A stretch of DNA of 47,590 bases, taken from Eubacteriales bacterium (GTDB lineage: Bacteria > Bacillota > Clostridia > Oscillospirales > CAG-272). Where the stretch lies: NCBI GenBank assembly GCA_045613605.1, contig JAZLBH010000151.1, forward strand, positions 1-47,590. Reading direction: 5' to 3'. The notes under the pieces are model-generated. The model saw only the letters and a list, made by a program, of their open reading frames with translations, was not told where the DNA came from and searched no databases. Of this stretch, positions 3,519 through 24,007 are shown in pieces. Numbering within the stretch: the stretch's first letter is position 1; each line of letters begins with the position of its first letter. The position numbers were made by a program, and so were the translations under genes.

Positions 3519-5180
3519 TTAGGAAAATAATTCCATAAAAAACTTAGCTATAGCATCAAAAAATGCTTTAATAAATGCCATAAATGAGTTAGGCTTTGCA
3601 GCAGGCTCTGTGGAAGATGTATAATTAGGATCCTCTTCCCCACATTCGCACTTGCCTTCAACGTATTCGTGTTCATGAGGAACGTAATCGGGATCAACCT
3701 CTCCACATTCACACTTGCCTTCTATGAACTCGTGCTCATGAGGAGGCACGTAATCGGGATCAGCCGCTTGGCATCTTGTACAAACACCGTTATAGTATTT
3801 ATGTCCAAGAGGATTGCCGAGAGTCTCACCACATTCACATTTAGCGGGCTCTGTGCAGGTCGCATCGTTCCAGTAATGACTGTGAGAATCACCTGATCCT
3901 GAGCCTGTGTTGTAGTTAGGATCAACCTTACCACAGGAGCAAACACCGTCTACGTAGCTATGCTCGTGAGGTTCAGTCTCCTTAGACTTTTCTACAAGCA
4001 TAATAGCATTTGAAACCTTACGCATAGAACCGTCGGATGGAGAGTTACGAAGTGTAAGTGTATCATTGATACGAACTACCATCGTAGAAGAACCGCCACC
4101 GTCAAGCTCAAGTGCATACTGAGCACCGAGAACACTTGCAAGCTGTGCTTCCTGTTTAACCGTAATACCGGTAGAACCGCCCGCACCGCGTCCGTCAACT
4201 ACACAAAGGAATCCTGTACCGTCAGCCTTGAAGCCAATAAAAGTACGTGGTGCAGATGCATTACCGTCATTGTCGGTGTGACAGTCCGTGTTAACAACAT
4301 TATTGTTAACCAATGCATCATATCCGCCAACTACCCAAGTGCATCCTGCAAATTTACCTGCAGGAATTTCAACAAGGTCAACGGGCTGTCCATAAACATG
4401 ACTTGCAAAGATTTCTTCATTTGCCGCACCGTAAACGATAGCATATTGACCGCTCTTAAGAGTGAACTCTTTTGCTGTTTGAACGCCTGTAGCACTCATT
4501 GTGTAGTCAGAACCCCAAACGGGATAAGCAGTGAGATTTGTGCTTTCTGCCTTAACAACCATAGCTCCCGCATTGTATACTGTATAAGTACCTGCAACGT
4601 TATAGATTGCTATCTCACCCGATGAGGGCTGCTGATTAAATTTATCAATTTTGAAAAATTGAGGTTCATTATTTTCATTGTAAATAACGATGCGAGACTC
4701 AACCTCTGTCATTCTGCCAACCACAACTTTTCCGTTGTTATCAAAGCCAATGCAATTTTTGTTTTGCATATTTCCCTTTGTAATAACGATACCGTTATTT
4801 ACGTAGGAATCTACGTTAGCGCCTGTATTATAAAAAAAGTCGCCGTTTACCGCAAGCATAACCTTGCGTCCTGTTTCAGCCTCATAATTCTTGGCAATAT
4901 TCATAACGTTTGAAAGAGTGGTATTTGAACCGTCTCTAACACTGTGAATTACCCATTCATACTCAGCATCTGCGGTGGTAGAATTGTACTCACCGTAAAA
5001 AATCTTTTGTGTAGATCCGTTTTCTTTTACTGTTGCTTCCTTGTAAACGATACCATTAATATTCTTAGAATACGTAGGAGTAGAAAGAACGCTTGACGTG
5101 AAAGCGGATACTGTAATAGTCATCAGAAGAACCAATGCCACTACTATTGTTAAAGAAGTTAAAATTTTTTTCATTTTCAT
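3519..5180 (-). CDS. secreted phosphodiester glycosidase family protein (NAGPA/DUF2233 domain) with C-terminal Cys/His mini-modules and a conserved amphipathic tail
   Basis: N-terminal signal/anchor (ILTSLTIVVALVLLMTITVSA). Motifs AVNGDFFY and RTFIGFKADGTGFLCVVDGRG...ALELDGGGSSTMVV match the NAGPA (uncovering-enzyme-like) domain. Repeated HEHxF/YxxGxCxCGxxDP(D/N)Y units at 3621-3968. The last 23 aa (NSFMAFIKAFFDAIAKFFMELFS) are the shared tail. Confidence 0.75.
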   Translation of the reverse strand: MKMKKILTSLTIVVALVLLMTITVSAFTSSVLSTPTYSKNINGIVYKEATVKENGSTQKIFYGEYNSTTADAEYEWVIHSVRDGSNTTLSNVMNIAKNYEAETGRKVMLAVNGDFFYNTGANVDSYVNNGIVITKGNMQNKNCIGFDNNGKVVVGRMTEVESRIVIYNENNEPQFFKIDKFNQQPSSGEIAIYNVAGTYTVYNAGAMVVKAESTNLTAYPVWGSDYTMSATGVQTAKEFTLKSGQYAIVYGAANEEIFASHVYGQPVDLVEIPAGKFAGCTWVVGGYDALVNNNVVNTDCHTDNDGNASAPRTFIGFKADGTGFLCVVDGRGAGGSTGITVKQEAQLASVLGAQYALELDGGGSSTMVVRINDTLTLRNSPSDGSMRKVSNAIMLVEKSKETEPHEHSYVDGVCSCGKVDPNYNTGSGSGDSHSHYWNDATCTEPAKCECGETLGNPLGHKYYNGVCTRCQAADPDYVPPHEHEFIEGKCECGEVDPDYVPHEHEYVEGKCECGEEDPNYTSSTEPAAKPNSFMAFIKAFFDAIAKFFMELFS

Positions 5181-5192
5181 TCTCTTCTATTC

Positions 5193-5216
5193 CCCCATCG
5201 CCCGAAGGCGATGGGG
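5193..5216 (-). other. intercistronic GC-rich stem-loop (10-bp stem, UUCG loop) between the giant lipoprotein gene and the phosphodiester glycosidase gene
   Basis: Minus-strand RNA reads ccccaucgcc-uucg-ggcgaugggg. It is preceded by an A-rich run and not followed by a U-tract. It ends 12 nt before the ATG at 5180 and contains the G-rich stretch that would serve as SD. Confidence 0.6.
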
Positions 5217-5253
5217 TTATTTTGTTTTTATTAATTGTATATTCAGTTAAGAA

Positions 5254-8200
5254 TTACTGGAATGTAAATCCTGTGATACTCATCTTCTGACCTACGAGAA
5301 AACGGCAATCAAGACCAACCTGACGAGCTGCATTACCGTCGGAACCACCGTTAGGAAGGATTACGAGTGTTTCGCCCTCCTGAAGGCTTTCCCAAGCCAA
5401 TGTAGCAAAGTTGTTTACAGTTACACCGTGTGTTTTATCATTAACACCGCTGGTTGCATCAGTATAACCAGCATTTGCACCGTCGTAAATTCTTGCAACC
5501 TTACCCTGAGCATCAAGAACTACTGCTACACCATAACCGTTAGTTGTGAATGTGCCTGTAAATCCCTTATCGTAGATAATGATAGCATAGCTAGCTGCAT
5601 TTGAAGTTGTTACAGCTGTGTTATAAAGCCACTTACCTTCTGTAGCTGTGTATGTCTTAGAACCGATTGTAATTGTCTTATTGGGGTCAGCAAATGTAAC
5701 ACCTGTAAGATGCATTGTCTGGTTGAAGAGATAACGGCAGTCAAGACCGATCTGACGAGCCTTATTTCCATCCGCACCATTGGGGAATACAACAAGTGTT
5801 TCACCTTCCTGAAGCTCGGACCAAGCTACTGTTGCAAATGTATTTGCATTAAAGTGAGCAGATGCCTGTTTACCTGCGGGCAACCAATAACCAACGTTTG
5901 CACCGTCATATACTCTTGCTACTCTTCCGTATGCATCAAGTACAACTGCTACACCATAGCCGTTTGTATTGAAGCTACCTGTGTAGCTCTTGTTAAATAC
6001 CCAAACTGCCTTTGTTGCGGCATTGGATGTTGTGATTTCTTCATTGATAGCCCACATGCCATCAACTGCTACGTACAATTTAGAACCGATTGAAACTGTG
6101 AAGCAGTTGCACTTCTTAGCACAAACTTCTTCTGTGCAAGCTGCATTTGTACAGCTACCGCATGTTTCGCATACGTTTTCGCAATAATGAGTGTGACCTG
6201 CGCACTTGGAAGCACAAACCTCTTCTGTGCACTCTGCATCAAGGCAAAGTCCGCACTGAGGACATTTGCTTTCACATTCGTGAGCGGGAACGCTGAATGT
6301 ATAACCAGTCAATACTACTTCTTTACCCATAGTATTTGCCCAGTTATCGCAAAGACCCTTACCGAATGTACGAGCAGAGTCTGCTGCATTTACAGCGTCA
6401 TTGGGGAAGATAATAAGAACTTCACCTGCTTTAAGCTCAGCAAAAGCTGTTGTAGCATAGTCGCCTACTGCATAGTGGATAGCTACCTTACCTTCAGCTG
6501 TGTAGTAACCGTCCCAAGCATAACCCTTAACGAGCTTGCCGTTACCGTCAACTACAAGCGCTACACCGTAGCTATTTGTAGAGAATGTACCTGTATAATT
6601 TCTATCAAAGATAATCATCTTATAGTTCTGTGCCTTAGGCTCAGTTGTATTACCGCACTGTGTATTATACAACCATTTGCCTTCAGCTGCCATAAATGAT
6701 GTACCGTTTATAGCAAAGTATTTGTTTGCGCTTGTATCTGTGCATACACACTTCTTAGCGCATACTTCATTTGTACATTCTGTATCCTTGCATCCGCCGC
6801 AGATAGCGCAAAGGCTTTCACAGTCGTGGCAAGAGCACTTTGTTTCACAAGCCTTTTCTGTACAAGCGGGATCCAAGCATCCGTTACACTTAGCACAAAT
6901 GCTTTCACATCTGTGGCAAGCACACTGAGCAAGACACGCGGGCATGATGCAAGTTGCATCCATACACTTACCGCAATCTGCACAAGCGCTTTCACAAGCG
7001 TGCTCAGGAAGTGCTTCAAATGTTACACCGGGAATTGTTGCAAGAGCACCAATTACACGAACACCACCAAGGAAGCTACGGCCTGCATTACCGTTCAAAC
7101 CGCCGTTAGCTCCGAGAATAAGGGTTTCACCCTCAGAAAGAGATGCATAAGCATCCTTCAATGTATCACCTGCAGCAGTAACACCTGCGATACCTGCTCT
7201 GTTAGCAGCATCGAAGTACTTACCACCACTTACGCCGTCGTAAATACGAACAACCTGACCGTACTGGTTAAGGATGAATGCCTGTGCCCAGCCGTTGCTC
7301 CAAGAAAGAGTTGCATTATCTTTCTTGAAATTATATGTATAAACTACAAAGTTATAAGAACCAAGAGTAGGTTTAGCTTCATCAATAGCAATTGTTCCGC
7401 CAAGAATCTTAAGAGACTTGCCATTAATTACTACTGTTACACAGTCACATTTAGCTGCACAAACCTCATTGTCACATTCGGAAGTACATTTTGCACATAC
7501 TTCGCAAATGTCTTCACAGTTGTGAACGTGACCTGCACACTTGTTAGCGCAAGCTGATTCTGTGCATTCTGCATCAAGGCAAAGACCGCACTGAACGCAA
7601 ACACTTTCACACTTGTGTTCAAATGTGATACCGGGAATTACTACCTTCGCACCGATTGTACGGTTAGAGAGCAAGAATCCTCTTGTAGCATTACCGTTAC
7701 CGTTAGGAGCAACAAGGAGATATTCTCCTGCCTGACGAGAGTTAAATGCCTCTGTCAAGTATCCAGCTGCTGTGCACTTAGATGCATCAGCTATACCCGC
7801 AGGATTTTCAACATCATAATACTTACCGTTAGCACCGTCGTAGATACGAACTACTTCGCCGTACTGGTTGATTATAAAGGCTTCACCCCAACCGTTTGCC
7901 CAGTTGAGATTGCCTGTATAACTAGGTGTATAAATTACAAATACGTTCTTACCAAGAGCATTGAGATCCTTGTCGATTGCAACAAGAGATTCAACTGTTG
8001 TATAAGCATTACCGTTAATAGAAATTTCATAAGCACTTGTTGTAACCTCAACAACACGAGTTACTGTTGTTGCATGTGTGCCGTCAGTAGCTTCAAGGGT
8101 AATTGTATATTTACCTGCTACGCCGATATCAAATCCACCGTCGTTAACAATAGTAACTGTAACAGCTGTATTGTCAGCAACGTCGAATGTGCCGTTATCG

Positions 8201-9336
8201 TCTGTAGCTACTACGCCTTCAAGTACCTTTACACTGAGATCATAATCAGAACCGGAAGCATAAAGCTGAGTTGTATGTCCGCTGATTACGGGAGCCTGGT
8301 CAACGTAAGGTGTGAGAACCTCAGCTGTGTCAGCCCAAAGAAGACGAACTACGTTACCGTATGTACCGATTACGTTATAGTTCATAAATCCACGTCCGTC
8401 AGAGTCAACTGTTGTACCAGCATAACCGGACTGAACTACGATCGCATAACCGCCTGCGGGAATCTTCATATCATCAGCAACCTTGTTGATGTTTTCCAAA
8501 GTAGCTGTGGTGGATCCACGGTTGGGGTTAGCAGCATTAAGAAGCTTATTGTTAGCACCGTCACGACCTTCAATAACTACACCGTTAGCTGTGATAATAG
8601 CTACTACTGCATAGTCACTGTTAGATACTGTAACTGTGATCTCAGAGGAAGATGCATTGTAGAATACACCACTCTGCTTATCGAATGTTGCGCTTTCATT
8701 AAGAACGTGATATTCATTGTTCTTAAAGTTAAGTATGCAACCTGTCCACTTTGTTTCACCAAGAAGGTTCTTCTGAACTTCAAGTGTAAGAGCAGAGAGA
8801 GCTTTGTTAACTACAACAGTACGTGTTGCAGTTGCTTCGTTACCATACTTATTCACTGCAAGATAGGTGATTGTGTAGGTACCTTCAACGTCCTTATCAA
8901 AGCCGTCGTCGTCCTCAATCCAAAGACGAACCTCATCGTCACCGGAATCAGTTACAGTTACACCGAACATAAGGTCGATATCATCACCTGCGTTGATCTC
9001 AAGTTCTTCGGGAACTACAGAGATAACGGGTGTTGTGCCTTCGGGTGTACTTGCATGTCCTGCACACTTATTAGCACAAACGTCCTCTGTGCAATCTGCG
9101 TCAAGACACAATCCACACTCGGAGCATTTGCTTTCACAAGCGTGGTCAACAGGGGGTTCTTCTCCGCCAGGTCCATCGGGATTGGTGGGCTCTGTAGGAG
9201 TTGCTGGGGTTGTAGAAACTTCTTGCTTCTGTGTTGCAGAAGGTTCGGTTTCCACAGGGAAAAGATCACACGATGTCATTGCGAGTACAAGCACAAGAAC
9301 AAGTGCAATCGCTGTCAAGATTCTTGACATTTTCAT
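5254..9336 (-). CDS. giant cell-surface lipoprotein: 2 Ig-like (DUF5011-like) domains, 6 copies of a ~140-aa beta-rich repeat, and 8 seven-cysteine mini-modules
   Basis: GAGGAGG lies 8 nt upstream of the ATG at 9334-9336 (M16 of the ORF-track protein). Signal peptide plus lipobox-like LVLAMTSC. Ig-like signature GTYTITYLAVNKYGNEATATRTVVV and GKYTITLEATDGTHATTVTRVVEV. Repeats carry NG(W/Y)G.A.(I/V)..(Q/A).G.V.R(I/V)YDG...GE.L...PNG. Cys modules are CE..C..C..C....C....C...C. Confidence 0.8.
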   Translation of the reverse strand: MKMSRILTAIALVLVLVLAMTSCDLFPVETEPSATQKQEVSTTPATPTEPTNPDGPGGEEPPVDHACESKCSECGLCLDADCTEDVCANKCAGHASTPEGTTPVISVVPEELEINAGDDIDLMFGVTVTDSGDDEVRLWIEDDDGFDKDVEGTYTITYLAVNKYGNEATATRTVVVNKALSALTLEVQKNLLGETKWTGCILNFKNNEYHVLNESATFDKQSGVFYNASSSEITVTVSNSDYAVVAIITANGVVIEGRDGANNKLLNAANPNRGSTTATLENINKVADDMKIPAGGYAIVVQSGYAGTTVDSDGRGFMNYNVIGTYGNVVRLLWADTAEVLTPYVDQAPVISGHTTQLYASGSDYDLSVKVLEGVVATDDNGTFDVADNTAVTVTIVNDGGFDIGVAGKYTITLEATDGTHATTVTRVVEVTTSAYEISINGNAYTTVESLVAIDKDLNALGKNVFVIYTPSYTGNLNWANGWGEAFIINQYGEVVRIYDGANGKYYDVENPAGIADASKCTAAGYLTEAFNSRQAGEYLLVAPNGNGNATRGFLLSNRTIGAKVVIPGITFEHKCESVCVQCGLCLDAECTESACANKCAGHVHNCEDICEVCAKCTSECDNEVCAAKCDCVTVVINGKSLKILGGTIAIDEAKPTLGSYNFVVYTYNFKKDNATLSWSNGWAQAFILNQYGQVVRIYDGVSGGKYFDAANRAGIAGVTAAGDTLKDAYASLSEGETLILGANGGLNGNAGRSFLGGVRVIGALATIPGVTFEALPEHACESACADCGKCMDATCIMPACLAQCACHRCESICAKCNGCLDPACTEKACETKCSCHDCESLCAICGGCKDTECTNEVCAKKCVCTDTSANKYFAINGTSFMAAEGKWLYNTQCGNTTEPKAQNYKMIIFDRNYTGTFSTNSYGVALVVDGNGKLVKGYAWDGYYTAEGKVAIHYAVGDYATTAFAELKAGEVLIIFPNDAVNAADSARTFGKGLCDNWANTMGKEVVLTGYTFSVPAHECESKCPQCGLCLDAECTEEVCASKCAGHTHYCENVCETCGSCTNAACTEEVCAKKCNCFTVSIGSKLYVAVDGMWAINEEITTSNAATKAVWVFNKSYTGSFNTNGYGVAVVLDAYGRVARVYDGANVGYWLPAGKQASAHFNANTFATVAWSELQEGETLVVFPNGADGNKARQIGLDCRYLFNQTMHLTGVTFADPNKTITIGSKTYTATEGKWLYNTAVTTSNAASYAIIIYDKGFTGTFTTNGYGVAVVLDAQGKVARIYDGANAGYTDATSGVNDKTHGVTVNNFATLAWESLQEGETLVILPNGGSDGNAARQVGLDCRFLVGQKMSITGFTFQ

Positions 9337-9411: not shown

Positions 9412-11490
9412 TTAAGCCAAACCGAAAAGCTTTTTGAAGAAATTAGCTATAGCCAATATCAATCTTTGGAAAAATCCGAGTTTAACGGGTGTTTCGGTAG
9501 CATTTCCCTCTTCTTCACCGTTATTTCCTTCATTTTCATTACCGTTTTCGTCATAAGAATTGTCATCATTACCGTTTTCGTCGTCTGGTAGCGGGGCTTC
9601 TTCTTCAACGTCCACGATAATTTCCATCAAGGATCTAGTCTCAATAATTTCAGCAAGATAACTCAAGTTCTCAGTAATTCTTTGAGTTGCATATCCACTT
9701 GAATAGGAGCTTACGTTTGCAAGAATTTCATTAAGACTGTTGTAAATTGCTGCAATTTCCTCGTTAGTTTCAAATGGCATTTGTTGAATCTCAAGCATAG
9801 CATTTTTAAGATTTGCTCTTTGCTCTGCCGTCATTGCTCCCGCAGGAACGTAAAGTCTGTCGGCTTTATCCAAAATGTCACCAAAGCTTGCTTCAAGAAT
9901 CTTATCAATACTTGCGTGTGGCAAAACTGCCCATTTATTATTGATACCACTTGAAAGCACGTCTTGAACGTCCTTATGTCCGATAATTTGCGCACCTGAG
10001 AAAATTACGTATCCGCAAGCGCCCGCTTCATAAGAAGCCGTAACAAAATTCTTGTTCTCATATGCGGGAAGTCCGCTATATGATGATGCGATTCCCGTAT
10101 AGTAGAGACATTTGCTACCGCCAAGCTCAATCATTGTCTTCACGTTTGTTTTCACGGTGGACGCACTTGAATAATAAGCCATTGGAGTTGCTATTTCAAT
10201 CCAACCGTTCTTAAACCAAGTTTGCCAATCCTGTTTTTTGGAATCCAACGATTCACTGATGGTTGCAAAAACAGCAGTTGAAAGAACAATTTTATTAGGA
10301 ATCTTTACCTCTTGCTTGATTCGATATACGAAATCAGTGATAACCTGCTTTCGATATTCGACCCAAAGATTATAGTTTTGGTCAGCCTCTGCCTGTCCAC
10401 CGGCAAGATAGTCCTTATTGAATAACTGCAGGAATTTATTTCTCATTTTTTTGCTATCAGCAAGCTGTTCAGCAGTAAATTCCTTACCAAGTAATTCATA
10501 AAAGCCCTTCATAGCGCCGGGGGCAAAGCCCGTATCCATAGATTTGTTGGACACAGGATAACGAATATAATCAAGATTAAGTCCCTTTACCTCGGGATGC
10601 TTTTTGAATAAATCGTTATAATAATTAATAAGAAGATTTTGGACCTCAACGTTAGCGGGGTCAATAAAGATGTACTGACCTCCCTCTTTACGCTGAAGGA
10701 ACGTGCCATCATCGTTATACATCACCCAATCGGGATGATCCTTAACAATTTTGGTGTTTGCATTGATACCGACGTAGAAGTTTTCAGTCCACGCGTGCAC
10801 TTCAATTCCGTTTTCAGAGCACAATGCAACGAATGCGGAAAGATAATCGTCATAAACTACGTTATTCTCGGTATCAGTATAAGTATCAACCAAATCGGGA
10901 TGATAAGGTATATCGCTTATATCGGTTTTGAATGCTGAGCATCCGTGATAAAAGGTTTCAAGGAAAATAAGATTGATCCCTGCTTTCTTGAAGGATTCAA
11001 CATTCTCTTTTATCTCAGCGTAGGTCTTTTCACACGGTCTATACCAAGTGGAACGCGCTGAAACGACCTTGCTTTCAACCAAAGACACTTCAATCAGAGT
11101 ACAAAGCTCCTCAATACGTGCTTTAGAATTGTTAAATTCAGATATATACGTTTCTACGTTTGAACCGTTGATATTATTAACAATATTGTTTTTGAGCGAA
11201 TTGGCTTTATTTATTTCACCTTGCACCTCAGAGATATAACCATCAATGAGCTTTGTATCAAGGTCATACAGCTGTAAAATTTTAGACTGTGCTGCATTTA
11301 CAGCTGAATTAACCTTGCTCGCTAAAGTGCTATATGTATTATTTATTGAAGAAGCGCTAACGCTTGCATCCTTATTCATATCAATTACATTATCGAAATT
11401 TTGCAAAGCGGATATGGAAATCAATGAAGTAAGTGTTATCAAAGCTATCAATAAAGCAATAATTTTAATTGCTATTTTTTTAATATACAT
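9412..11490 (-). CDS. secreted GHL10 (DUF187, glycoside hydrolase-like family 10) protein with N-terminal coiled-coil region and conserved C-terminal tail
   Basis: N-terminal signal/anchor. Motifs INLIFLETFYHG, IEVHAWTENFYVG, YIFIDPAN and GLNLDYIRYP are characteristic of DUF187/GHL10 TIM-barrel proteins. Acidic low-complexity linker, then the tail LGFFQRLILAIANFFKKLFGLA. Confidence 0.75.
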   Translation of the reverse strand: MYIKKIAIKIIALLIALITLTSLISISALQNFDNVIDMNKDASVSASSINNTYSTLASKVNSAVNAAQSKILQLYDLDTKLIDGYISEVQGEINKANSLKNNIVNNINGSNVETYISEFNNSKARIEELCTLIEVSLVESKVVSARSTWYRPCEKTYAEIKENVESFKKAGINLIFLETFYHGCSAFKTDISDIPYHPDLVDTYTDTENNVVYDDYLSAFVALCSENGIEVHAWTENFYVGINANTKIVKDHPDWVMYNDDGTFLQRKEGGQYIFIDPANVEVQNLLINYYNDLFKKHPEVKGLNLDYIRYPVSNKSMDTGFAPGAMKGFYELLGKEFTAEQLADSKKMRNKFLQLFNKDYLAGGQAEADQNYNLWVEYRKQVITDFVYRIKQEVKIPNKIVLSTAVFATISESLDSKKQDWQTWFKNGWIEIATPMAYYSSASTVKTNVKTMIELGGSKCLYYTGIASSYSGLPAYENKNFVTASYEAGACGYVIFSGAQIIGHKDVQDVLSSGINNKWAVLPHASIDKILEASFGDILDKADRLYVPAGAMTAEQRANLKNAMLEIQQMPFETNEEIAAIYNSLNEILANVSSYSSGYATQRITENLSYLAEIIETRSLMEIIVDVEEEAPLPDDENGNDDNSYDENGNENEGNNGEEEGNATETPVKLGFFQRLILAIANFFKKLFGLA

Positions 11491-11515: not shown

Positions 11516-14500
11516 TCAAGCGATGCCAAAAAGTCTTTTGAAGAAATTGATAATTGCCTGGAAGATTCTTGCAAAGAAGCCAAGCTGCTCGGGCTCTTCT
11601 GCAGGCTTATTGATATTGATGTTACCACCCTCGTTTACAGGAGGCGTATTATTTGTTCCACCGGGAGCAAAGATACCGTCTTCATTAACTACGGGACGCT
11701 GAGGATTCTCTTCAGGATTCCACTGTCCGTCCTCAATAAGCTTCATAGAAATTCTTGCATCAAGCACGTCAGCAAGATAATTGAGCTGCTCAATGATTCT
11801 CTGGCGTGAGTATCCGTTTGCATAGTTCTTAATTACATTTGTCTTTGCAAGCTCAGTGATTGCCTTTTTAATCTTATAGATTGCAACTGCATCACTGTCA
11901 TCCATAGCTGCAATTTCGTCAAGAATTGCCTTAAGCTCAGCCTTTTGAGCCTCGGTCATACCGCCTGCGGGAATATAGAGTCTATCTGCCTTATCAATGA
12001 TATCCGCAAAGCCTGCCAAAAGAATCTCATTGATGTCTGCATGAGGAAGAACTCCCCATTTGCTGTTTACACCGTTCTTGAGGGCATTTTGAACGTCCTC
12101 GTGACCGATAATCTGTGTTGAACAGAAAATTACGTAACCTGATGCACCCGCATTATAGGATGCTTCGATAAATTCCTTATTATAGTATGCAGGAAGTCCG
12201 CTGTAGGAGGAAGCAAGACCTGCATAGTACATACAAGTGTTACCACCCATAAGGATCATTTCCTTAACTCTTGCATTTACGTCAGAAGCATTGTTGTAAT
12301 ATGCCATGGGTGTTGCAATATCAATCCAACCGTTATTGAACCAAGTTTTCCAATCCTGCTTCTTTGCACCGCTTGATTCACTCAAGGATGCAAATACTGA
12401 CGTTGAAAGCATAATATCGTTAGGAAGCTTAACCTCATCCTTAATTCTGCGAACGTATTCAGTAATAATGGAAGCACGGTATTTAACCCACTTATCGTAG
12501 TTTTCAGTTGCTTCTGCTTCACCGCCCTTGAGGTAATTAGGATCAAAGAGCTGCTTAAACTTATTGTACATTTTTTCTCTTGATGAAAGCTGGTTATCAG
12601 TAAATTCTTTACCAAGAGTTGCATAGAAGCCCTTCATAGCCTCAATTGTAAAGCCTGTATCCTCAGTTGCATCGGAAACAGGATAACGAATATAGTCAAG
12701 GTTAAGTCCTGAAATTTCAGGGTGCTTTGTCAAAAGATCGTTATAATATTTGATAAGTGTATCCTGAACGGCCTTATTAGCGGGGTCGATGAAATAGTAA
12801 GGACCACCCTCGTTACGCTGAATTGTCGTGCCGTCATCGTTGTACATTACCCAATCGGGATGCATGGTCAAAACTTGAACTGTCTTATCAGTTCCAACGT
12901 AGAAGTTTTCAACCCAAGCATGTACCTCAATGCCGTTTTCAATACAGCAAGCTACAAAAGCAGAAAGGTAATCGTTATAAATTGTACCCTCTTCCGTTCT
13001 ATATGTTTCGGAAAGGTTCTTGTGATATGGGAATTCGGCAACATCGCTTCTGAATGTTGAATATCCATTATAAAGTGTTTCAACAAAAACAAGGTTAATG
13101 CCTATTTCCTTATACATCTTTACATTAGTCAAAATTTCAGCATATGTCAATTCAATGGGTCTGTGCCATACTGCTCGAGCAGAAACAACGTTGCTCTCAG
13201 CTGAGCACATAATAATTGTCTGACGAAGCTTTTCAATTACAAGCTGACTATCATTATATCTCATAAGAAGACTAAGACGAGCGTCTTCAGTAAGATCGGG
13301 ATCTTCAAGGGCAACCTCGATCTCCTCTTTTACTGATTTTAATTTTCCAAGCTCTTCTCTTGCCTGATCAATGTAGCCGTTCAAAGCCTCTGCGTTTACA
13401 TCATAAAGCTGTTTGATTCTTGTTTCAGCATTTGAAATCGCTGATTCAACGCTTGTTACAAGATTTTCGTAGTAAGAGTTAAGGGTTGTGGAAACAGAAT
13501 ATCTATTATTCTCTTCATCAAGAACTACTGTTGCACCAACAACGATATTACCACGAATAAAGTCACGACCCAATCCGTGACCGGATATTACGTAACCTCC
13601 CTCGGGAATTGATGAAACGTTTACACCAAGCTCAACAACGATGCCGTTAGCATCAACTGCGGCTTCAAAGCCATAAACGTTTGTACCTGTACCGGACGCG
13701 CCCTTATAGTCCCAACCGTACTTATAAATAATAGTTTGGTCAGTACCGCGGAACGCAGGAAATTCTTCAGTAGAAGTTTCCATACCGTTGGGGTTGCTTT
13801 CCTTTGTAGGGTTAATATGGTCAAAGGTGCCGTAAACCGTACCGCCAAATCTTACGAAATCAAAGCCAACCATCTTAACCTCGTCGCCAACGTTAAACAA
13901 TTGAAGCTTAGCGAGAAGCTGACGGTAACCGGGACCGTAAGCACTAAGAACGAATCCGTTATCGGGAATTACGGAACCGGAATCATCTCCGATACCGAAG
14001 GGACGGAAATCTTTAACCACGAACGTGTTCTTTTCGAAATCGAACTGACACATCATTTCAGTACCAAATACGTTAGTACCTGTCTTTTCACCGTACTGAT
14101 AGTCGTAATAAACGACCATGGACGTTGAACGGTTAGCATTTGTTGCATCAACAACAACTCTGCTTCCGCTTGTAGATTCAACTGCCTTTGTGGGAATAAC
14201 AAGCTTCTTTTCACCGCCCAATGTAACTACGTCACCGATTTTTGCAAAATCAAGATGAATATTGCTGTTAAGTGAAAGAACAAAACCGCCTACAGGAATA
14301 TATGTAGTACCGTCACCGCTTGTATTAATCTTAGTTACAACATAACTTCCATCACTGTACTCACAAACGTATTCAGTATAATTACCAACACGTCCGGTAG
14401 TGGTTTTGGGATAATACGCAGTGTAAATTATAGAATCTTCATCGTAGATAGTATCATAATGAATTTCATAGTCCGTCAATGAACCACCACTTGCAACTTC

Positions 14501-14686
14501 CCAGTAATCTGCCGGGTCTGAGGATACACCTGAGATGGTGTTTTCACCAACCGTAACGGTGATTCCTCTGATTGAAATGTCACGAGTATACTCACCCTCT
14601 TGCGCTGCGAAGATCATCACTCCGCTAACTGCCAAAAGAGAAACAAGTAACACACACAATCCGATTCTAAATAAATTTCTTTTCAT
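11516..14686 (-). CDS. secreted GHL10 (DUF187) protein with ~430-aa N-terminal beta-rich extension and conserved C-terminal tail
   Basis: Signal peptide (LCVLLVSLLAVSGVMIFAAQ). The C-terminal ~600 aa are a close paralog of 9412..11490 (INLVFVETLYNG, IEVHAWVENFYVG, YYFIDPAN, GLNLDYIRYP). Tail LGFFARIFQAIINFFKRLFGIA. Confidence 0.75.
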   Translation of the reverse strand: MKRNLFRIGLCVLLVSLLAVSGVMIFAAQEGEYTRDISIRGITVTVGENTISGVSSDPADYWEVASGGSLTDYEIHYDTIYDEDSIIYTAYYPKTTTGRVGNYTEYVCEYSDGSYVVTKINTSGDGTTYIPVGGFVLSLNSNIHLDFAKIGDVVTLGGEKKLVIPTKAVESTSGSRVVVDATNANRSTSMVVYYDYQYGEKTGTNVFGTEMMCQFDFEKNTFVVKDFRPFGIGDDSGSVIPDNGFVLSAYGPGYRQLLAKLQLFNVGDEVKMVGFDFVRFGGTVYGTFDHINPTKESNPNGMETSTEEFPAFRGTDQTIIYKYGWDYKGASGTGTNVYGFEAAVDANGIVVELGVNVSSIPEGGYVISGHGLGRDFIRGNIVVGATVVLDEENNRYSVSTTLNSYYENLVTSVESAISNAETRIKQLYDVNAEALNGYIDQAREELGKLKSVKEEIEVALEDPDLTEDARLSLLMRYNDSQLVIEKLRQTIIMCSAESNVVSARAVWHRPIELTYAEILTNVKMYKEIGINLVFVETLYNGYSTFRSDVAEFPYHKNLSETYRTEEGTIYNDYLSAFVACCIENGIEVHAWVENFYVGTDKTVQVLTMHPDWVMYNDDGTTIQRNEGGPYYFIDPANKAVQDTLIKYYNDLLTKHPEISGLNLDYIRYPVSDATEDTGFTIEAMKGFYATLGKEFTDNQLSSREKMYNKFKQLFDPNYLKGGEAEATENYDKWVKYRASIITEYVRRIKDEVKLPNDIMLSTSVFASLSESSGAKKQDWKTWFNNGWIDIATPMAYYNNASDVNARVKEMILMGGNTCMYYAGLASSYSGLPAYYNKEFIEASYNAGASGYVIFCSTQIIGHEDVQNALKNGVNSKWGVLPHADINEILLAGFADIIDKADRLYIPAGGMTEAQKAELKAILDEIAAMDDSDAVAIYKIKKAITELAKTNVIKNYANGYSRQRIIEQLNYLADVLDARISMKLIEDGQWNPEENPQRPVVNEDGIFAPGGTNNTPPVNEGGNININKPAEEPEQLGFFARIFQAIINFFKRLFGIA

Positions 14687-18199: not shown

Positions 18200-18228
18200 A
18201 TTATATAACTTATCATTCATAATGTCAA
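18200..18228 (-). promoter_or_regulatory. sigma-A type promoter of the nanE-to-ABC operon
   Basis: Minus strand reads TTGACA-17 nt-TATAAT (perfect consensus), ~75 nt upstream of the nanE ATG and just downstream of the GH38 terminator. Confidence 0.65.
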
Positions 18229-18292
18229 TAGTTTTTGTGTTTTTTTATTTCAAAAAGCAAAACTTTTTTTGAAAATAAATTTCATTTTTAGC

Positions 18293-18323
18293 AACAAAAA
18301 ACAGGCTCAATTTTCATTGAGCC
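18293..18323 (-). terminator. rho-independent terminator after the GH38 gene
   Basis: Minus strand: ggctcaat-gaaa-attgagcc followed by tgttttttg. Confidence 0.7.
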
Positions 18324-18332
18324 CATTATTTT

Positions 18333-21257
18333 TTATTTGATTTTGATAGTTTTTATCTCAAAGGGCTTAAAGCTTATGGATACACTTCCCTTGCCCAGGC
18401 ATTGAAGCTCATCCTCAAGAACGTTACATTCAGTTATTTCTCTTCCCTCAGCACTAAAGGCTATAGCACCGGATGCGCCAAGCGCTTCATAAAAACGAAG
18501 CACGATTCCATCATCCTCACCGTACTTAACGGTTTCAAGAACGATACTTTCCGCGCCCTCAAAATCAAAGGGTACACAAAGTGACTTTTCATCGGTCAAT
18601 ACGGGCGTATAATTGAATCCGTATCCGCGCCTTACCGTATCCATTCCAAGTCCGTTTGCGTGAGGATAAATTGCATATTTGAAGAAGCTTTCTCCAAGAT
18701 CGCCCCTCGCATCGGGATGAGTTCCGCTCTTGTGAAGGGTCATACCCATTCGACCGCCCTGACAAGACACGCCGTACTTACAGTTGCTTAACAAGGAAAC
18801 ACCCAATCCGTGCTCTGAAAGGTCGGTCCATTTATGAGAGCAAACCTCGAATTTAGCAATATCGCTCTTATCCCTGTCAAAGCAATTGCGTTCAACGTGG
18901 CCAAATTGAGTTTCGCACTTATATGACGATGCAAACAACGTGGTATCAAATTCAGCTCTTATAAGAGTATGCTTATCACCGGCAATAAGGTGATTTTCAA
19001 ATTCGATTGTCGGATCATCATATCTAAGCTTGATATCCGTTTCAAGGAAGGAGTTATCCGCTATTTCGTGCTTCACCCTAATTACAAGAAGAAATTCACC
19101 GTTGCTAACAACCTCTTGACCTATGAATCGAACGTTTTTCTCCTTCATTCGATAGTCTGCATCAATGTCCCAGTTGTCGTAAATGCAAGGAATATCCTCG
19201 TAGCATTTAATGATGTTAAATCCACCCTTACCCACAAGCTCTCTTCCGTTGTATACAAGGGACTTGATAACACCGTCAGTGAGTGTAAGTGTTAAATACG
19301 GAGTAGTAATAACATCCCCACAAATCGTAAACGGAATTCCTTTATTTTTTGCTCTCTTTCCATATCCAAACGCATCAAATTTGAATGGAGCAACAGTACG
19401 CTTTCCATCAATTGCTTCATAGCTTTGACCCTGCTCTGCAGGCAAAATCTCATTACGCGCAAACGGCAAGGTGTTGAAATATGGCTTTCTTAATTTTCTT
19501 CCCCTGCCCACGATATAATCGTTAGCCTTCTTCAAAGCCTCTCTTTGCTCCTCCAACGCTACATCAGTCGCCTCAGCCAAGCAGGTTCCGGGCAATATAT
19601 CATGGAATTGATTAAGCATAAGCGTATCGTAAAGATTGTCAGTTAATGCTTTAGCATCCTTGTCCTCAGCCAACACAGATATGAGCTCTGCGTCATGAAG
19701 TGCCTCTTCAAGACGGCGATTATACATTTTCAAATTATGATTGGTCGTGTATGTTCCGCGATGCAGCTCAAGATAAAGCTCTCCAAAATACGTCGGAAGC
19801 TCTCGAGCGCTCACTTTTTTCATAAAATCAGATACAGTCGTATGCTCGACCTTTACGTCCTTGCAGTACTTTTCCGTATGTATTGCGCGTGTCACCATCT
19901 CGTCAGCAGGACCGCCGCCACCGTCACCAAAGCCGTATGCCATAAGGAACGAGTCGGTCTCTCTCATATTTCGAATATCGTTGATTCGCTTCGCAACTGA
20001 TTCCTCATCGATCCAGGTGTGAATCGTATTAAAATGAACGGGCACTTCACTTCCGTCAATTCCCTTCCACATAAACGTTTCATAGGGGAACATATTAGTA
20101 TCATTCCAGCTGAGCTTGGTTGTCAAGAAATACTCAACGTCGCTCTTTTTCATAATCTGAGGAAGCGCGGCAGAATATCCAAATGTATCGGGAAGCCAAA
20201 ACGCATTAGACTCATATCCGAATTTTTTTCTCAGATATCTCTTGCCTCGCAAAAATTGACGGCAAAATGCCTCAGAACCCGTAAGATTTCCGTCGCATTC
20301 AACCCAAGTAGCGCCGTTTACCTCAAATCTGCCCTCGGCAATCAATTTTTTAATATCCTCGAACAAAACAGGGTCTTCATCCTCTATCCATTTGAGATAA
20401 AGAACAGTCGACATAAAGAATTTATATTCGGGGTGTCTTTTAAGCAAGGTTACCGCATTTGAAACGGTACGCATCAGCTTTCTTTTGGTTTCATCAACCG
20501 TCCAAAGCCACGCGGTATCAAGATGACTGTGACCTATAATTCCCACATACGGGAGCTTCCTTTCACTAGCAAAGAAATCGTCAATTATCTTTGTTCCGTC
20601 AATCAGATAATGACTTTCGGGTCGCTTCTTTTCCAAGGGTAAGAGTTTAAAAAGCTCGAGATAAATCTTCTCAATTTCAGCGCGCTGAAATCTATCCTTT
20701 TCGGAATTATAAAGCTTGTTCAACAGCGTTAATTTTTCACAAAATTCCTTAATTTCCTGATCCAATACCGCAAGTGCAATTTGCTGATACGGTCTATCCT
20801 CAATCAATGAATCATAAGCCCATGTAAAAGGCTCATCATAAGGATTTAATCCGGAAATCGGGTGTGAAAAATAAGCCTCAAGAGTTACCAAATCACCGTT
20901 TTTAAGTCCTTCAAGAAGAAGATATCTATGGGTTCTTGCAGGCGGCTCAAAAGCATTGGTAATATAATCGAGCATGCCGACCTTTTTACCGTTAACGCAC
21001 ACTAAATGCTCAGCCGCGCCTGAGTTTGCAAAGACGTAATGCTTCTCATTTTCATCAATATTTTCAACCACAAATGAGAATGTCTGACACTTAAAATCGC
21101 TTCCCCATCTATAGCCGTTGCTCACCTCGATCTCTTTGCCGTTCCTTAATGTCGTAACTCTTGGCTCAACTATATTTTTCACAAGAAATCCACCATACAT
21201 TTGCTCAAGTCGAGCAACCTTTTGGACCATTCTTTCAACCTGTCTGTCCTGTAACAT
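18333..21257 (-). CDS. GH38 alpha-mannosidase, cytoplasmic
   Basis: 974 aa, no signal peptide. GH38 motifs GHSHLDTAWLW, FWLPDTFGYSAALPQI and NQFHDILPGT. Confidence 0.9.
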   Translation of the reverse strand: MLQDRQVERMVQKVARLEQMYGGFLVKNIVEPRVTTLRNGKEIEVSNGYRWGSDFKCQTFSFVVENIDENEKHYVFANSGAAEHLVCVNGKKVGMLDYITNAFEPPARTHRYLLLEGLKNGDLVTLEAYFSHPISGLNPYDEPFTWAYDSLIEDRPYQQIALAVLDQEIKEFCEKLTLLNKLYNSEKDRFQRAEIEKIYLELFKLLPLEKKRPESHYLIDGTKIIDDFFASERKLPYVGIIGHSHLDTAWLWTVDETKRKLMRTVSNAVTLLKRHPEYKFFMSTVLYLKWIEDEDPVLFEDIKKLIAEGRFEVNGATWVECDGNLTGSEAFCRQFLRGKRYLRKKFGYESNAFWLPDTFGYSAALPQIMKKSDVEYFLTTKLSWNDTNMFPYETFMWKGIDGSEVPVHFNTIHTWIDEESVAKRINDIRNMRETDSFLMAYGFGDGGGGPADEMVTRAIHTEKYCKDVKVEHTTVSDFMKKVSARELPTYFGELYLELHRGTYTTNHNLKMYNRRLEEALHDAELISVLAEDKDAKALTDNLYDTLMLNQFHDILPGTCLAEATDVALEEQREALKKANDYIVGRGRKLRKPYFNTLPFARNEILPAEQGQSYEAIDGKRTVAPFKFDAFGYGKRAKNKGIPFTICGDVITTPYLTLTLTDGVIKSLVYNGRELVGKGGFNIIKCYEDIPCIYDNWDIDADYRMKEKNVRFIGQEVVSNGEFLLVIRVKHEIADNSFLETDIKLRYDDPTIEFENHLIAGDKHTLIRAEFDTTLFASSYKCETQFGHVERNCFDRDKSDIAKFEVCSHKWTDLSEHGLGVSLLSNCKYGVSCQGGRMGMTLHKSGTHPDARGDLGESFFKYAIYPHANGLGMDTVRRGYGFNYTPVLTDEKSLCVPFDFEGAESIVLETVKYGEDDGIVLRFYEALGASGAIAFSAEGREITECNVLEDELQCLGKGSVSISFKPFEIKTIKIK

Positions 21258-21268: not shown

Positions 21269-22090
21269 TTAAATTGATTTGTTAGAAACGGCATTTGCCG
21301 TTCTAAGAGTATATTCGTATCCTTCAGCTCCCAATTTTTCATATATCGCATTATACAAAACATTGATAATGTACGATATAGAAACGATAGTTGACACCGA
21401 GCCGCCCTCATAAGCCGCTTCGCGCCTTGTTGAGAACAATATATAATCGGCATATTTAGCAAGCGGAGAATGATCGTAGCAAGTAATAACGACTATGTTT
21501 ACACCATTTTTCTTAGCAATCTCCGCAACGTCAATTATATCCTTTGTACTACCTGAAACACTTATTAAAATTACTGTATCATCCTCGCAAAGGTTGCTTG
21601 TTATCATTGATTGAAGATGGCTGTCGGGAGTATAAGTAACCATAACACCTATACGCGCCAAAACGTTACTTATTTCCATAGCCGTAATTGAAGAATTTCC
21701 TACGCCAAAGGCACAAATTTTTCTTGAATTTATCAGCAAATCAGCTATTTTAAGACATTCATCATAGCGTATTGAACGAGAGGTCTCGTTTATGGCATCC
21801 ACCATTTGCAGGGCTATTCTTTTTTCAATGCAATCCGCGGATATCTGATTTCTCATTCCGGTTTCTTGACTCAAATGAAGCTTAAATTCTTGAAAGCCGT
21901 TATACCCCAGCTTTTTACAAAAACGGACCAAGGTCGCATCTGCAACCTTCAAACGTGTTGCAAGGTCACTGATCGAAAGATAAATAATCTCCTCCGGGGG
22001 TATTTTCAACAACGCATCTATTACCTTTTTTTCAGTTTTAGTGGCTATTTCCTTTGCGGCATAGATTCTATCCAAAGCCTTTCCTACCAT
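21269..22090 (-). CDS. MurR/RpiR family transcriptional regulator (HTH_6 + SIS sugar-phosphate-binding domain)
   Basis: N-terminal HTH ISDLATRLKVADATLVRFCKKLGYNGFQEFK. SIS domain motifs ICAFGVGNSS and VILISVSGSTKD. AAAGGAG RBS. Confidence 0.85.
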   Translation of the reverse strand: MVGKALDRIYAAKEIATKTEKKVIDALLKIPPEEIIYLSISDLATRLKVADATLVRFCKKLGYNGFQEFKLHLSQETGMRNQISADCIEKRIALQMVDAINETSRSIRYDECLKIADLLINSRKICAFGVGNSSITAMEISNVLARIGVMVTYTPDSHLQSMITSNLCEDDTVILISVSGSTKDIIDVAEIAKKNGVNIVVITCYDHSPLAKYADYILFSTRREAAYEGGSVSTIVSISYIINVLYNAIYEKLGAEGYEYTLRTANAVSNKSI

Positions 22091-22167: not shown

Positions 22168-22211
22168 GAGGATTTGCACTTTTTATTCTATTTATGCACA
22201 ATTTTATGTAC

Positions 22212-22244
22212 AAAAAAAGAAGCAGGTGCTTTTGCACCTGCTTC
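22212..22244 (-). terminator. rho-independent terminator after the 582-aa secreted protein gene
   Basis: Minus strand: gaagcaggtgc-aaaa-gcacctgcttc followed by ttttttt. Confidence 0.8.
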
Positions 22245-22258
22245 TCATTATCAATTAA

Positions 22259-24007
22259 TTATTTTTTGAAAATTGCAAGAAGCTTATTGATAAGATCTGT
22301 AAACCAAGCAATAATCTTCTGGAAGAAGTTAAGCTCGGGCTGAGGTTCAGGTTGAGAATCAACGGGAGCCTCGTAATCGGGATCCTCTGCACCACAAGCG
22401 CACTTGCCGTCAACATATTCGTGTGCAAGAGCTTCACCCTCTGTTGTACCACATGCTGAACATGTCTTAGGGGCTGTACATGTAGCATCTACCCAAGTGT
22501 GTCCAAGAGCTTCACCCTCTGTTTCACCGCAAACTGAACATGTCTTAGGAGCTGAGCATGTAGCATCTGCCCATGTGTGACCAAGAGCATTGCCCTGTTC
22601 TTCACCACATTCGCATGTAGCGGGAGCTGTACAAGTTGCAGGAGCAAATGAATGCTCATGAACTTCAACCTCTACCTTGCACCAGTAGTTACCGCCAGCA
22701 ACGTTACCGATAAGGTATGCGCCTGCCTTAGGAAGAACAAGTGTAGTAACTGCTGTTACTTTGTTATCAGCGGGCTCAACATTTGATTGAGCAACAATAG
22801 TTTTGCCATCCATTTCATAAACAGCTACTTCTCTATAAGCACCTGCTGCATTCCAATAAATTGTAACCTTTGCTTCGCCAGCAGTAACAATCTGAACGTA
22901 GTTCTTAAATCCACCATTGGAAACAGCAGCTTCACCCTCTCCGTTATTGCAAGGAGCAGAAGCGCCGCCAAAGTTCATTCTATGTGTAGAAGGCCAGCCA
23001 TCGTCAAACTCTTTAATGAAGTTTGCATCAGTTCTATAACCATTGCTAAGGTGACAAGCAAATACACCGTCAACCACTCTAACTTCACCGTCGAAGAGTG
23101 AGTACTGTGCAATACCCTCAAGATCAGCCGCATCAAGAACGTACTTGCCGTCAGTCATAACACCAACTGCATCGGATTCAAAATGCATACCACATACTGA
23201 ACAATCAGCAATTGTGTTGCCTGCTGCCTCAGCTGTAGGAAGTGTATTAACGAATGTAAGTGTATGACCGAGAGCTTCAACAAGCGTGAGATCACATCTT
23301 GTGCACTTCTGTGCAGTTGTACATGTTGCTTCAGCACCTGCTTCGTGACCAAGAGCTTCGCCCTCTACTGTTCCACACTTAGGACAGTTCTTAGCTGTTG
23401 TACATGTAGCTTCAATATATGCATGTTCGCAAGTAGTGGGATCTGCAAGCTCAACGCTCCAAGACACCTCTACCTTGAATATGTAGTTACTTCCTTCAGG
23501 ACCTGCGATTGCATATGTACCCGCTGCGGGAATACTGAACTCATCAATATAAAGGGAATTCTTTGTTGTAGCTGTTGTGGTTGCACTAAGAGTTGTTGCA
23601 TTTTCATCCCAAAGAGCTACGGTTCTGCCGTCACCACCGCATACCCACCAAACCTTAACGGTTGCAGCTCTATCAACTGTAAACTTAACCAAATTCAAGG
23701 AAGAAGTCGATTTTCCGCCCCAGTTAATTCTTTGACCGGACGTATATCCATCTTCAAATACTTTTGAACTGGAATCGATTTTTACTTTAGCACTCATTAC
23801 AAGTGTAAAGAAATCATCAGTTCCTGCAATTACTTCTTGTCCGTCAGCAAAAGCACCCTGAGCCGCAGCGTCAAGCAAAGATGCTTCAAGCACCTTAGTT
23901 ACTGTACCTGTGTTTGCTTCTTCAGCACTTGCAGTGATAATGCTCAAGCCCATCAAAACCGTCATTACAACGAGTACAAGAGCCAAAATTTTGCTTGTGT
24001 TTTTCAT
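22259..24007 (-). CDS. secreted protein: two paralogous beta-sandwich-like domains, each followed by Cys/His mini-modules, plus the conserved C-terminal tail
   Basis: Signal peptide (ALVLVVMTVLMGLSIITASA). Two ~150-aa internal paralogous domains (...RINWGGKS...VKVWW... and ...RMNFGGAS...VTIYW...). Repeats of ATC(T/S)APKTCSxCGxTEGEALGH. HEYVDGKCACGAEDPDY precedes the tail LNFFQKIIAWFTDLINKLLAIFKK. Confidence 0.7.
   Translation of the reverse strand: MKNTSKILALVLVVMTVLMGLSIITASAEEANTGTVTKVLEASLLDAAAQGAFADGQEVIAGTDDFFTLVMSAKVKIDSSSKVFEDGYTSGQRINWGGKSTSSLNLVKFTVDRAATVKVWWVCGGDGRTVALWDENATTLSATTTATTKNSLYIDEFSIPAAGTYAIAGPEGSNYIFKVEVSWSVELADPTTCEHAYIEATCTTAKNCPKCGTVEGEALGHEAGAEATCTTAQKCTRCDLTLVEALGHTLTFVNTLPTAEAAGNTIADCSVCGMHFESDAVGVMTDGKYVLDAADLEGIAQYSLFDGEVRVVDGVFACHLSNGYRTDANFIKEFDDGWPSTHRMNFGGASAPCNNGEGEAAVSNGGFKNYVQIVTAGEAKVTIYWNAAGAYREVAVYEMDGKTIVAQSNVEPADNKVTAVTTLVLPKAGAYLIGNVAGGNYWCKVEVEVHEHSFAPATCTAPATCECGEEQGNALGHTWADATCSAPKTCSVCGETEGEALGHTWVDATCTAPKTCSACGTTEGEALAHEYVDGKCACGAEDPDYEAPVDSQPEPQPELNFFQKIIAWFTDLINKLLAIFKK

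Follow-up and report, generated by a model that had tools for sequence, protein, structure and literature searches.

What holds four exported proteins of one apparent glycan-utilisation locus at the cell surface, if they are held there at all? The locus lies in a 47,590-nucleotide stretch of DNA from a Eubacteriales bacterium of the CAG-272 lineage (contig JAZLBH010000151.1 of assembly GCA_045613605.1, positions 1 to 47,590), which was analysed at its full length and is called the window here. Four of its open reading frames (ORFs), named here by their lower coordinates 3519, 9412, 11516 and 22259, end in a similar short tail, which an initial annotation had taken for a new anchoring or sorting tag. 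Our analysis indicates that the tail very probably serves surface or membrane retention. More specifically, we propose that its 18-20 residues form a helix which binds the membrane by itself and matches in kind the C-terminal anchor of the Escherichia coli penicillin-binding proteins PBP5 and PBP6, a reading by analogy that we regard as likely. The earlier proposal thus stands as a membrane-retention tag of the low-molecular-weight PBP kind, but a new class of sorting signals is not supported.

The four tails are real but uneven. As annotated, all four ORFs lie on the minus strand and run into the tail right before the stop codon, with 0-2 residues in between, and the DNA coordinates given for the tails were correct (Table 1); the proteins stop in GLA, GIA or S. 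Against a profile hidden Markov model (HMM) built without any window sequence, the tails at 9415-9480 and 11519-11584 are canonical, while those at 22262-22333 and 3522-3590 are diverged, the last with a net charge of 0. A six-frame scan of the whole window with the tail HMM returned these four only, the next best match having E=0.15. We count the two weak tails as members solely because their orthologues bear canonical tails in register: P0189, an orthologue of the 22259 ORF (54-58% identity), ends in NFFQKIIAWITSFFSKILGIFKK, and P0145, an orthologue of the 3519 ORF (58% identity), ends in LNFFQRLIQAILNFFRNLFSK. The most similar pair, the 9412 and 11516 tails, has 15 of 22 residues in common, 8 of them through different codons, which places the conservation at the level of the protein and not of a DNA repeat. 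A repeated-DNA or mobile-element origin was dropped, as even this pair has just 43 of 66 bases identical, with synonymous changes.

The sequence of the tail describes an amphipathic helix. Its consensus is E-(E/K)-L-(N/G)-F-F-x-(R/K)-I-W-x-A-I-x-(N/D)-F-F-(K/R)-x-L-F-G, followed by 0-4 mostly basic residues, and at each of seven positions (F, I, FF, L, F, G) conservation is 90% or more in carriers whose folds are unrelated. The number of residues after LFG has a median of 3 in Clostridia, where many tails end in GKKK or GIKD, and of 0 in DUF1002 proteins. The core contains two 11-residue repeats (x-NFF-xx-hW / x-NFF-xx-LF), with a self-identity of 0.35 at lag 11 and at most 0.15 at other lags, a periodicity that gives a straight hydrophobic face. 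The hydrophobic moment (100 degrees) of the window tails is 0.53-0.69, reached by at most 0.9% of shuffles: 0.58 for 9412, 0.69 for 11516 (0 of 2000 shuffles), 0.61 for 22259 and 0.53 for 3519 (0.05% of shuffles); the mean over 122 distinct tails is 0.61. The Kyte-Doolittle maximum over 19 residues is 1.1-1.4, and the middle of the helix holds 2-3 charged and 2-3 amide residues. Summed on an insertion scale whose values reportedly come from Hessa et al. 2005, the cost of insertion is +8 to +12.6 kcal/mol for the tails, or +8 to +9 for those set against the PBP5/6 type of anchor, compared with -1.6 to -3.9 for transmembrane anchors of homologous proteins and -2.5 for a signal peptide. The tails lack what defines a transmembrane tail anchor, namely at least 19 predominantly apolar residues with a favourable insertion energy. 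The annotation had called the tail an amphipathic helix too polar to span the membrane, and moment, hydropathy and insertion cost all agree. AlphaFold2 modelled the 9412 protein with a mean predicted local distance difference test (pLDDT) score of 80.8, a confident GHL10 fold, a disordered linker at residues 627-670 (pLDDT <50) and a tail helix at residues 673-688 (pLDDT ~79) that is detached from the fold.

The tail is not confined to this locus. A profile of 50 tails (A1), searched against 1.84 billion cluster representatives, matched 230 at E<=1e-3 and 17 at E<=1e-10. Among the best 150 of the 230, the match stops no more than 5 residues short of the C-terminus in 133, 6-15 residues short of it in 13, and elsewhere in 4 (P0121, P0198, P0162 and P0236, where the tail is followed by extra repeat units). 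A signal-peptide-like N-terminus was found in 58 of the 75 full-length carriers (at least 280 residues), and 72 full-length carriers match 53 different Pfam families. The 25 of these families that were listed are mostly of extracellular type, such as pullulanase X25, CBM26, CBM77, BspA-type leucine-rich repeat (LRR), immunoglobulin (Ig)-like, pectate lyase, GH95, GH3, NAGPA and DUF1002 families. A protein search with a 44-residue tail profile gave 16 short fragments only, and a genome scan with a degenerate DNA pattern gave at least 120 loci, most of them chance matches in other phyla. The idea of a modular C-terminal tag on exported proteins holds for the large majority, with 146 of 150 matches no more than 15 residues from the stop, but some carriers are apparently cytoplasmic. 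These have no signal peptide and comprise a ParB_N protein in a metagenome-assembled genome (MAG) of Spirochaetales (L054 5293-5691) and two Actinomycetota proteins, one matching Pfam COXG/CoxG (L060 894-1505) and one without a Pfam match (L057 2429-3019). An archaeal exported protein also ends in the motif. This distribution suggests that the helix also serves as a cytoplasmic membrane-targeting sequence; it fits an autonomous lipid-binding helix that acts from either face, not a signal that is read outside the cytoplasm.

Several single cases deserve mention. P0121, the top profile match, was a false lead, being an internally repeated protein with just 12 profile positions matched, and in P0198 the match is a low-complexity linker, not a tail. 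The one clear non-C-terminal case found is P0162 (784 residues), where the motif (GFFSSIIDAIVKFFSKLLG) stands at residues 22-43 and 406-432, opening two long tandem repeats, and a Gly/Ser linker follows. A DUF1002 protein of an uncultured Ruminococcus sp. (L007 4070-5074), with 38 acidic residues beyond the tail, is a rare non-terminal exception. A set of mini-proteins of 76-123 residues (P0123, P0147, P0153, P0166, P0175, P0193, P0253 and the loci L124 427-798 and L125 490-825) has no parts other than the tail, an acidic Pro-rich linker and, in front, either a signal peptide or a lipobox; two of them are complete ORFs inside contigs. Those with both lipobox and tail would be tethered at both ends.

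The closest known counterpart is found in E. coli. The K-12 protein DacC (PBP6) ends in GGFFGRVWDFVMMKFHQWFGSWFS (longer stretch ...EEGGFFGRVWDFVMMKFHQWFGSWFS), and the C-termini of DacA (PBP5) and DacC align without gaps, in the same register and place, with NFFQRIWQAIVNFFKKLFG; the common register is (N/G)FF-x-(K/R)-(I/V)-(I/W)-x2-(I/V)-x3-F-x2-(L/W)-F-G. We scored both against two position matrices, one from 122 Clostridial tails and one from 50 DUF1002 tails, with 20000 composition-preserving shuffles. Without gaps, PBP5 attains 13.8 and 18.0 bits, as do 1 and 0 of the shuffles, and PBP6 attains 6.8 and 9.3 bits, as do 23 and 105. The tail HMM itself gives PBP5/6 a local score of 2.4 bits and sees the first half only, so the link is modest. 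We therefore describe the resemblance in sequence as real but weak, and either convergence or common descent may have led to it. A Firmicutes (UBA1393) homologue of DacC, L107 (E=1e-56), ends in a tail of Clostridial type, NVFVRAFRAIANFFRGLFGRGKSR; no DacA match occurred among the fetched carriers. The annotation had named the amphipathic anchors of low-molecular-weight PBPs among its analogies, and this was the right one, extending even to sequence.

What this counterpart does is well established. It has been proven that PBP5 is kept by its tail on the outside of the cytoplasmic membrane: without its C-terminal anchor residues PBP5 becomes a soluble periplasmic form, and PBP5 kept in the cytoplasm with these residues is still recovered with membranes (PMC2909392). 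PBP5 function also depends on the kind of anchor, for which a generic transmembrane helix is no substitute (2002 work, as cited in PMC2909392). Peptidase_S11 DD-carboxypeptidases are not among the window carriers, which have NAGPA, GHL10 or no Pfam match; the element that the tail carriers and PBP5 have in common is the anchor, not the enzyme.

A second group of carriers came from the DNA-pattern scan, which also matched DUF1002/YpuA proteins of Streptococcus sanguinis, Heyndrickxia, Clostridium sp. and Tissierellia. Of 120 homologues of this family, from Bacillaceae, Roseburia and Lachnospiraceae, 107 have the motif as their extreme C-terminus, and so have the S. sanguinis proteins and a DUF1002 copy on a Staphylococcus aureus plasmid. 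The Pfam model of the family (PF06207) stops 30-50 residues before the tail, and a Pfam scan found no PF06207 match in the window proteins; the tail alone is what they have in common with DUF1002. The mean net charge of the DUF1002 tails is -0.12 (minimum -5) compared with +2.84 for Clostridial tails, so charge is not the conserved feature. An AlphaFold2 model of one DUF1002 protein has a low-confidence tail helix (pLDDT ~50) and is uninformative on docking. A DUF1002 protein of S. suis, which may bear the tail, has been reported as surface-localized (PMC13125869).

Further evidence for an anchoring role comes from proteins that use another device in its place. Among 120 listed homologues of the 9412 protein, from MAGs of Clostridia and Ruminococcaceae, 98 have the tail at the C-terminus, 21 have a hydrophobic helix (Kyte-Doolittle 2.6-3.3) followed by KKK instead, and 1 has neither. 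In the window, each exported protein examined has either a lipobox (the 1925, 5254 and 30818 ORFs) or the tail (the four carriers). The giant lipoprotein in the same gene row had been annotated as having a lipobox and lacking the tail, and its termini and the tail HMM bear this out. Lipobox or tail in the window, together with the transmembrane helix in the homologues, points to the tail filling the functional slot of a membrane anchor.

We propose the following course of events. First, the carrier would be exported by the Sec pathway through its N-terminal signal peptide. Second, the tail, as the last segment to leave the channel, would fold into an amphipathic helix of two 11-residue repeats (x-N-F-F-x-x-h-W, x-A-I, x-N-F-F-x-x-L-F), in which the N/G/S before and the Gly after the helix may act as caps. 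Third, in analogy with PBP5, the Lys/Arg/Gln/Asn face would remain at the head groups. Fourth, a disordered acidic or Pro-rich linker would let the enzyme or binding domain extend into or through the wall. As an outcome, glycan-degrading and glycan-binding proteins would be held non-covalently at the cell surface, a task for which their neighbours and orthologues have a lipobox or a C-terminal transmembrane helix. A bolder version, which we hold to be doubtful, is that the aromatic pattern, nearly invariant from E. coli PBP5 through Clostridial glycosidases to the neutral or acidic tails of DUF1002, is a specific targeting code that directs a protein to one particular depth, lipid domain or partner where membrane and wall meet, that it is the main surface-display device for glycan-degrading enzymes in uncultured Clostridia and that the mini-proteins have a function of their own; it is hinted at because a generic transmembrane helix cannot replace the PBP5 anchor.

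Several points weigh against the membrane-binding helix. Membrane binding, topology and the role of the linker are derived from physics and analogy, and the analysis found no experiment with any of these proteins. The similarity to PBP5/6 covers 19 residues of restricted composition, in which convergence is inseparable from common descent; DacD has no similarity to the tail matrices; and L107 was found through a DNA pattern that already required AIxNFFxxLFG, the second half of the motif. The profile searches were biased towards tails that resemble the GHL10 set. Some carriers bear both a lipobox and the tail, which would be redundant if both were merely anchors, and, considering the uncharged or acidic DUF1002 tails, electrostatic attraction to anionic lipids is not the whole story. 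Finally, at least 90% conservation of F/I/F/F/L/F/G exceeds the need of a generic lipid-binding helix and leaves room for a specific partner.

This last point leads to the foremost alternative, in which one particular partner (for example a membrane protein, scaffold or wall polymer) is the docking site of the tail, whose aromatic face would bind a protein groove and not lipid, so that retention depends on the partner. We consider this unlikely, and yet it is the main reason why our confidence in the membrane-binding helix is not higher, since the conservation of the seven positions across unrelated folds goes beyond what lipid binding asks for; that the motif is kept in net-acidic form in DUF1002, and that PBP5 function depends on anchor kind according to the 2002 work cited in PMC2909392, would also agree with it. 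However, clustering of the neighbours of 15 carrier loci and the window gave no recurrent gene family except syntenic orthologues (genome-wide co-occurrence was not covered). The motif also occurs in E. coli PBP5, Firmicutes, Actinomycetota CoxG proteins and an archaeon, and on both sides of the membrane, a spread that makes a single conserved partner improbable. In addition, AlphaFold2 does not dock the tail of the 9412 protein onto its own protein.

It is quite unlikely that the tail is a weakly hydrophobic C-terminal transmembrane segment, perhaps in an oligomer that buries the polar face, with its terminal Lys residues in the cytoplasm. Its 18-20 residues would suffice to span a bilayer, the GKKK or GIKD endings would suit such a topology, and true transmembrane anchors take its place in homologues. 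The energetics given above speak against it, as do the charged and amide residues in mid-helix and the low Kyte-Doolittle maximum; moreover, many tails stop straight after LFG, leaving no cytoplasmic residues, and the window tails end in GLA, GIA or S.

A sorting signal that is cut or transferred by a sortase, exosortase, archaeosortase or rhombosortase, with covalent attachment of the carrier to wall or lipid, was the other half of the original proposal, in which the tail was likened to LPXTG and to other C-terminal sorting domains. That so many exported proteins carry the tail at their very C-terminus, with several such proteins in one region (four in the window), and that its signature is conserved, often with basic residues behind it, is what one would expect of such a signal. 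Nevertheless, the tail lacks the three-part build of a signature, a membrane-spanning hydrophobic helix and a basic cluster, it matches none of the NCBIfam sorting-domain models at E<=10, and among the neighbours of carriers at the 15 loci and in the window no candidate enzyme was found repeatedly. Proteins of cytoplasmic type also end in the motif, and the E. coli PBP5 tail is retained as an anchor. We judge this explanation very unlikely, and a new signal of the LPXTG or CTERM kind is not supported. Lastly, that the four tails are alike by chance or by the composition of AT-rich, Phe/Lys/Ile-rich C-termini is hardly credible and is refuted for three of the four, for although the 3519 tail reaches just 3 bits against the independent profile, two tails reach 53-57 bits, the orthologues of the weak two bear canonical tails in register, hundreds of independent carriers end in the motif, and the synonymous differences between the paralogous tails show selection on the peptide.

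The carriers and their surroundings in the window are collected in Table 1.

Table 1. Tails, carrier proteins and neighbouring features in the window (positions count from the first letter of the window; minus denotes the reverse strand; aa, amino acids).
Feature	Position	Strand	Evidence or remark
Canonical tail LGFFQRLILAIANFFKKLFGLA	9415..9480	-	C-terminus of 692-aa GHL10 protein; 57 bits, independent HMM
Canonical tail LGFFARIFQAIINFFKRLFGIA	11519..11584	-	C-terminus of 1056-aa GHL10 protein; 53 bits, independent HMM
Diverged tail LNFFQKIIAWFTDLINKLLAIFKK	22262..22333	-	C-terminus of 582-aa Cys-repeat protein; 14 bits, independent HMM
Strongly diverged tail NSFMAFIKAFFDAIAKFFMELFS	3522..3590	-	C-terminus of 553-aa NAGPA phosphodiester glycosidase; 3 bits, independent HMM
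Carrier 1: signal peptide, NAGPA domain, HE(Y/F)VEGKCECGExDPDY repeats, tail	3519..5180	-	Pfam PF09992, E=1.9e-28
Carrier 2: signal peptide, coiled region, GHL10 domain, linker, tail	9412..11490	-	Pfam PF02638
Carrier 3: signal peptide, N-terminal extension, GHL10 domain, linker, tail	11516..14686	-	Pfam PF02638
Carrier 4: signal peptide, two beta-rich modules, Cys-containing repeats, tail	22259..24007	-	No Pfam family at curated cut-off
Acidic, Asn-rich disordered linker, residues 627-670 of 692-aa GHL10 protein	9481..9612	-	pLDDT <50
Giant lipoprotein, same gene row, no tail	5254..9336 (ORF 5254-9381)	-	N-terminal lipobox LAMTSC (MKMSRILTAIALVLVLVLAMTSC); C-terminus ...ITGFTFQ; no tail-HMM match
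Pectate lyase lipoprotein, no tail	30818..32638	-	Pfam PF00544; lipobox LSVFAC
Lipoprotein resembling solute-binding component	1925-3484		Lipobox; no family match
ATP-binding cassette (ABC) sugar transporter, together with the preceding lipoprotein	81-3484		Downstream
Cytoplasmic GHL10 protein, without signal peptide or tail	14744-15886		
DUF4127	15942-17438		
NanE-like N-acetylmannosamine-6-phosphate (ManNAc-6-P) epimerase	17440-18177		
GH38 alpha-mannosidase	18333-21257		
RpiR regulator	21269-22090		

The N-termini of all four carriers have a K/R-rich stretch and then a hydrophobic region closing at an A-x-A-like site, so that the annotated signal peptides are borne out, as judged by eye. 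The motif had been described as sitting on unrelated domains. The 9412 and 11516 ORFs are GHL10 paralogues (51% identity), and the latter is itself listed, as P0076, among the homologues of the former; the window therefore has three architectures, namely NAGPA, GHL10 (twice) and one without a Pfam match, and the description is right for these three but not for all four carriers. In the same way, a low-complexity acidic or Pro/Asn-rich linker, annotated before each tail, exists as a long (~45 residues) acidic or Asn-rich stretch in the two GHL10 carriers only; the 3519 and 22259 carriers have linkers of just 10-13 residues after Cys-rich repeats.

These repeats are an observation in their own right. 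Short Cys repeats without a Pfam match occur in 22259-24007 (aa 190-545), in 3519-5180 (aa 404-520) and in several blocks of 5254-9381, with forms such as H-x-W-x-D-A-T-C-T-x-P-K-T-C-x-x-C-G-x-T-E-G-E-A-L-G, HE(Y/F)VEGKCECGExDPDY and CES(K/V)CxxCGLCLDAxCTExxCAxKC. The first type leads directly into the tail in many unrelated carriers (...TCKNCGATEGEKLNFF..., P0178, P0193, P0212, P0229). The repeats may be an undescribed stalk or spacer module. The apparent glycan-utilisation locus around the carriers extends over 14744-21257, and a phosphorylated mannose or ManNAc glycan is a plausible substrate, given the exported NAGPA phosphodiester glycosidase. Elsewhere in the window, positions 34001-36000 have a G+C content of 0.28 compared with ~0.40 in the remainder and carry a DnaJ plus SBP_bac_3 protein (33902-35026) and an unannotated 317-aa ORF (35145-36098); this region may be foreign DNA.

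The annotation had stated that it knew of no described motif of this form. Scans of the full proteins and the bare tails found no Pfam or NCBIfam model that covers the tail (no tail match at E<=10), and a search of PDB sequences with the tail profile at E<=10 found no match. A search of the accessible literature on the motif, on amphipathic C-terminal anchors of Firmicutes and Clostridia and on YpuA/DUF1002 found no description of a shared module, the YpuA matches being promoter-reporter uses or yeast strain names. The Pfam model PBP5_C stops at residue 383 of 403 of PBP5, short of the anchor, which explains the missing database match of the tail. The statement holds for the shared module but not for the anchor: the PBP5/6 anchor itself is classic, and what is new is the recognition of an anchor of this type as a conserved, portable and promiscuous module. 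Uncultured gut and rumen Clostridia use the tail heavily on glycan-degrading and glycan-binding proteins, and the DUF1002 family uses it throughout the Firmicutes.

If the tail is an anchor, four exported proteins of one glycan-utilisation locus would be cell-bound and not released, and the same would apply to enzymes and binding proteins of hundreds of families in Clostridia of gut and rumen. Current predictors would miss this, since neither Pfam nor NCBIfam has a model for the tail. A tail profile would improve localisation prediction for many carbohydrate-active enzymes of uncultured Firmicutes and would give the widespread DUF1002/YpuA family a predicted membrane attachment. The PBP5/6 anchor, so far treated as a peculiarity of DD-carboxypeptidases, appears here as one instance of a portable module, and its many natural variants are offered for the study of membrane binding by such helices. 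As a short tag, the tail might also serve to display proteins on the surface of Gram-positive hosts.

Among known systems, the C-terminal transmembrane anchors of Gram-positive bacteria and the LPXTG and CTERM signals resemble the tail in their position in the protein, and surface retention is presumably the common outcome. They differ from it in that the tail has no hydrophobic span, no cleavage motif and no matching NCBIfam model, and no associated enzyme was found. Short amphipathic helices in the membrane interface are familiar from the targeting sequences of MinD, FtsA and RNase E and, on lipid surfaces, from the 11-residue repeats of apolipoproteins, alpha-synuclein and perilipins; both kinds show little sequence conservation and work from the cytoplasm or at lipid droplets. 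The tail shares the lag-11 signal with the latter and its occurrence on non-exported proteins with the former, but it has two repeats only and a fixed aromatic pattern. DUF1002 proteins bear the same motif behind a helical region and not behind a low-complexity linker. The nearest counterpart remains the PBP5/6 anchor. Its hosts are DD-carboxypeptidases, whereas the tail is found on glycosidases and on carbohydrate-binding, LRR and Ig-like proteins of presumably monoderm hosts, as their assignment to Clostridia suggests. The PBP5 anchor comes directly after a beta-sandwich, the tail usually behind a long disordered linker; in the second half, PBP5 has MFHHWFG where the tail has FF-(K/R)-x-LFG, and the tail is more cationic and more amphipathic (hydrophobic moment 0.66 compared with 0.43). 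Both, however, form the last 18-20 residues of a Sec-exported protein, as an amphipathic helix that is too polar to span the membrane.

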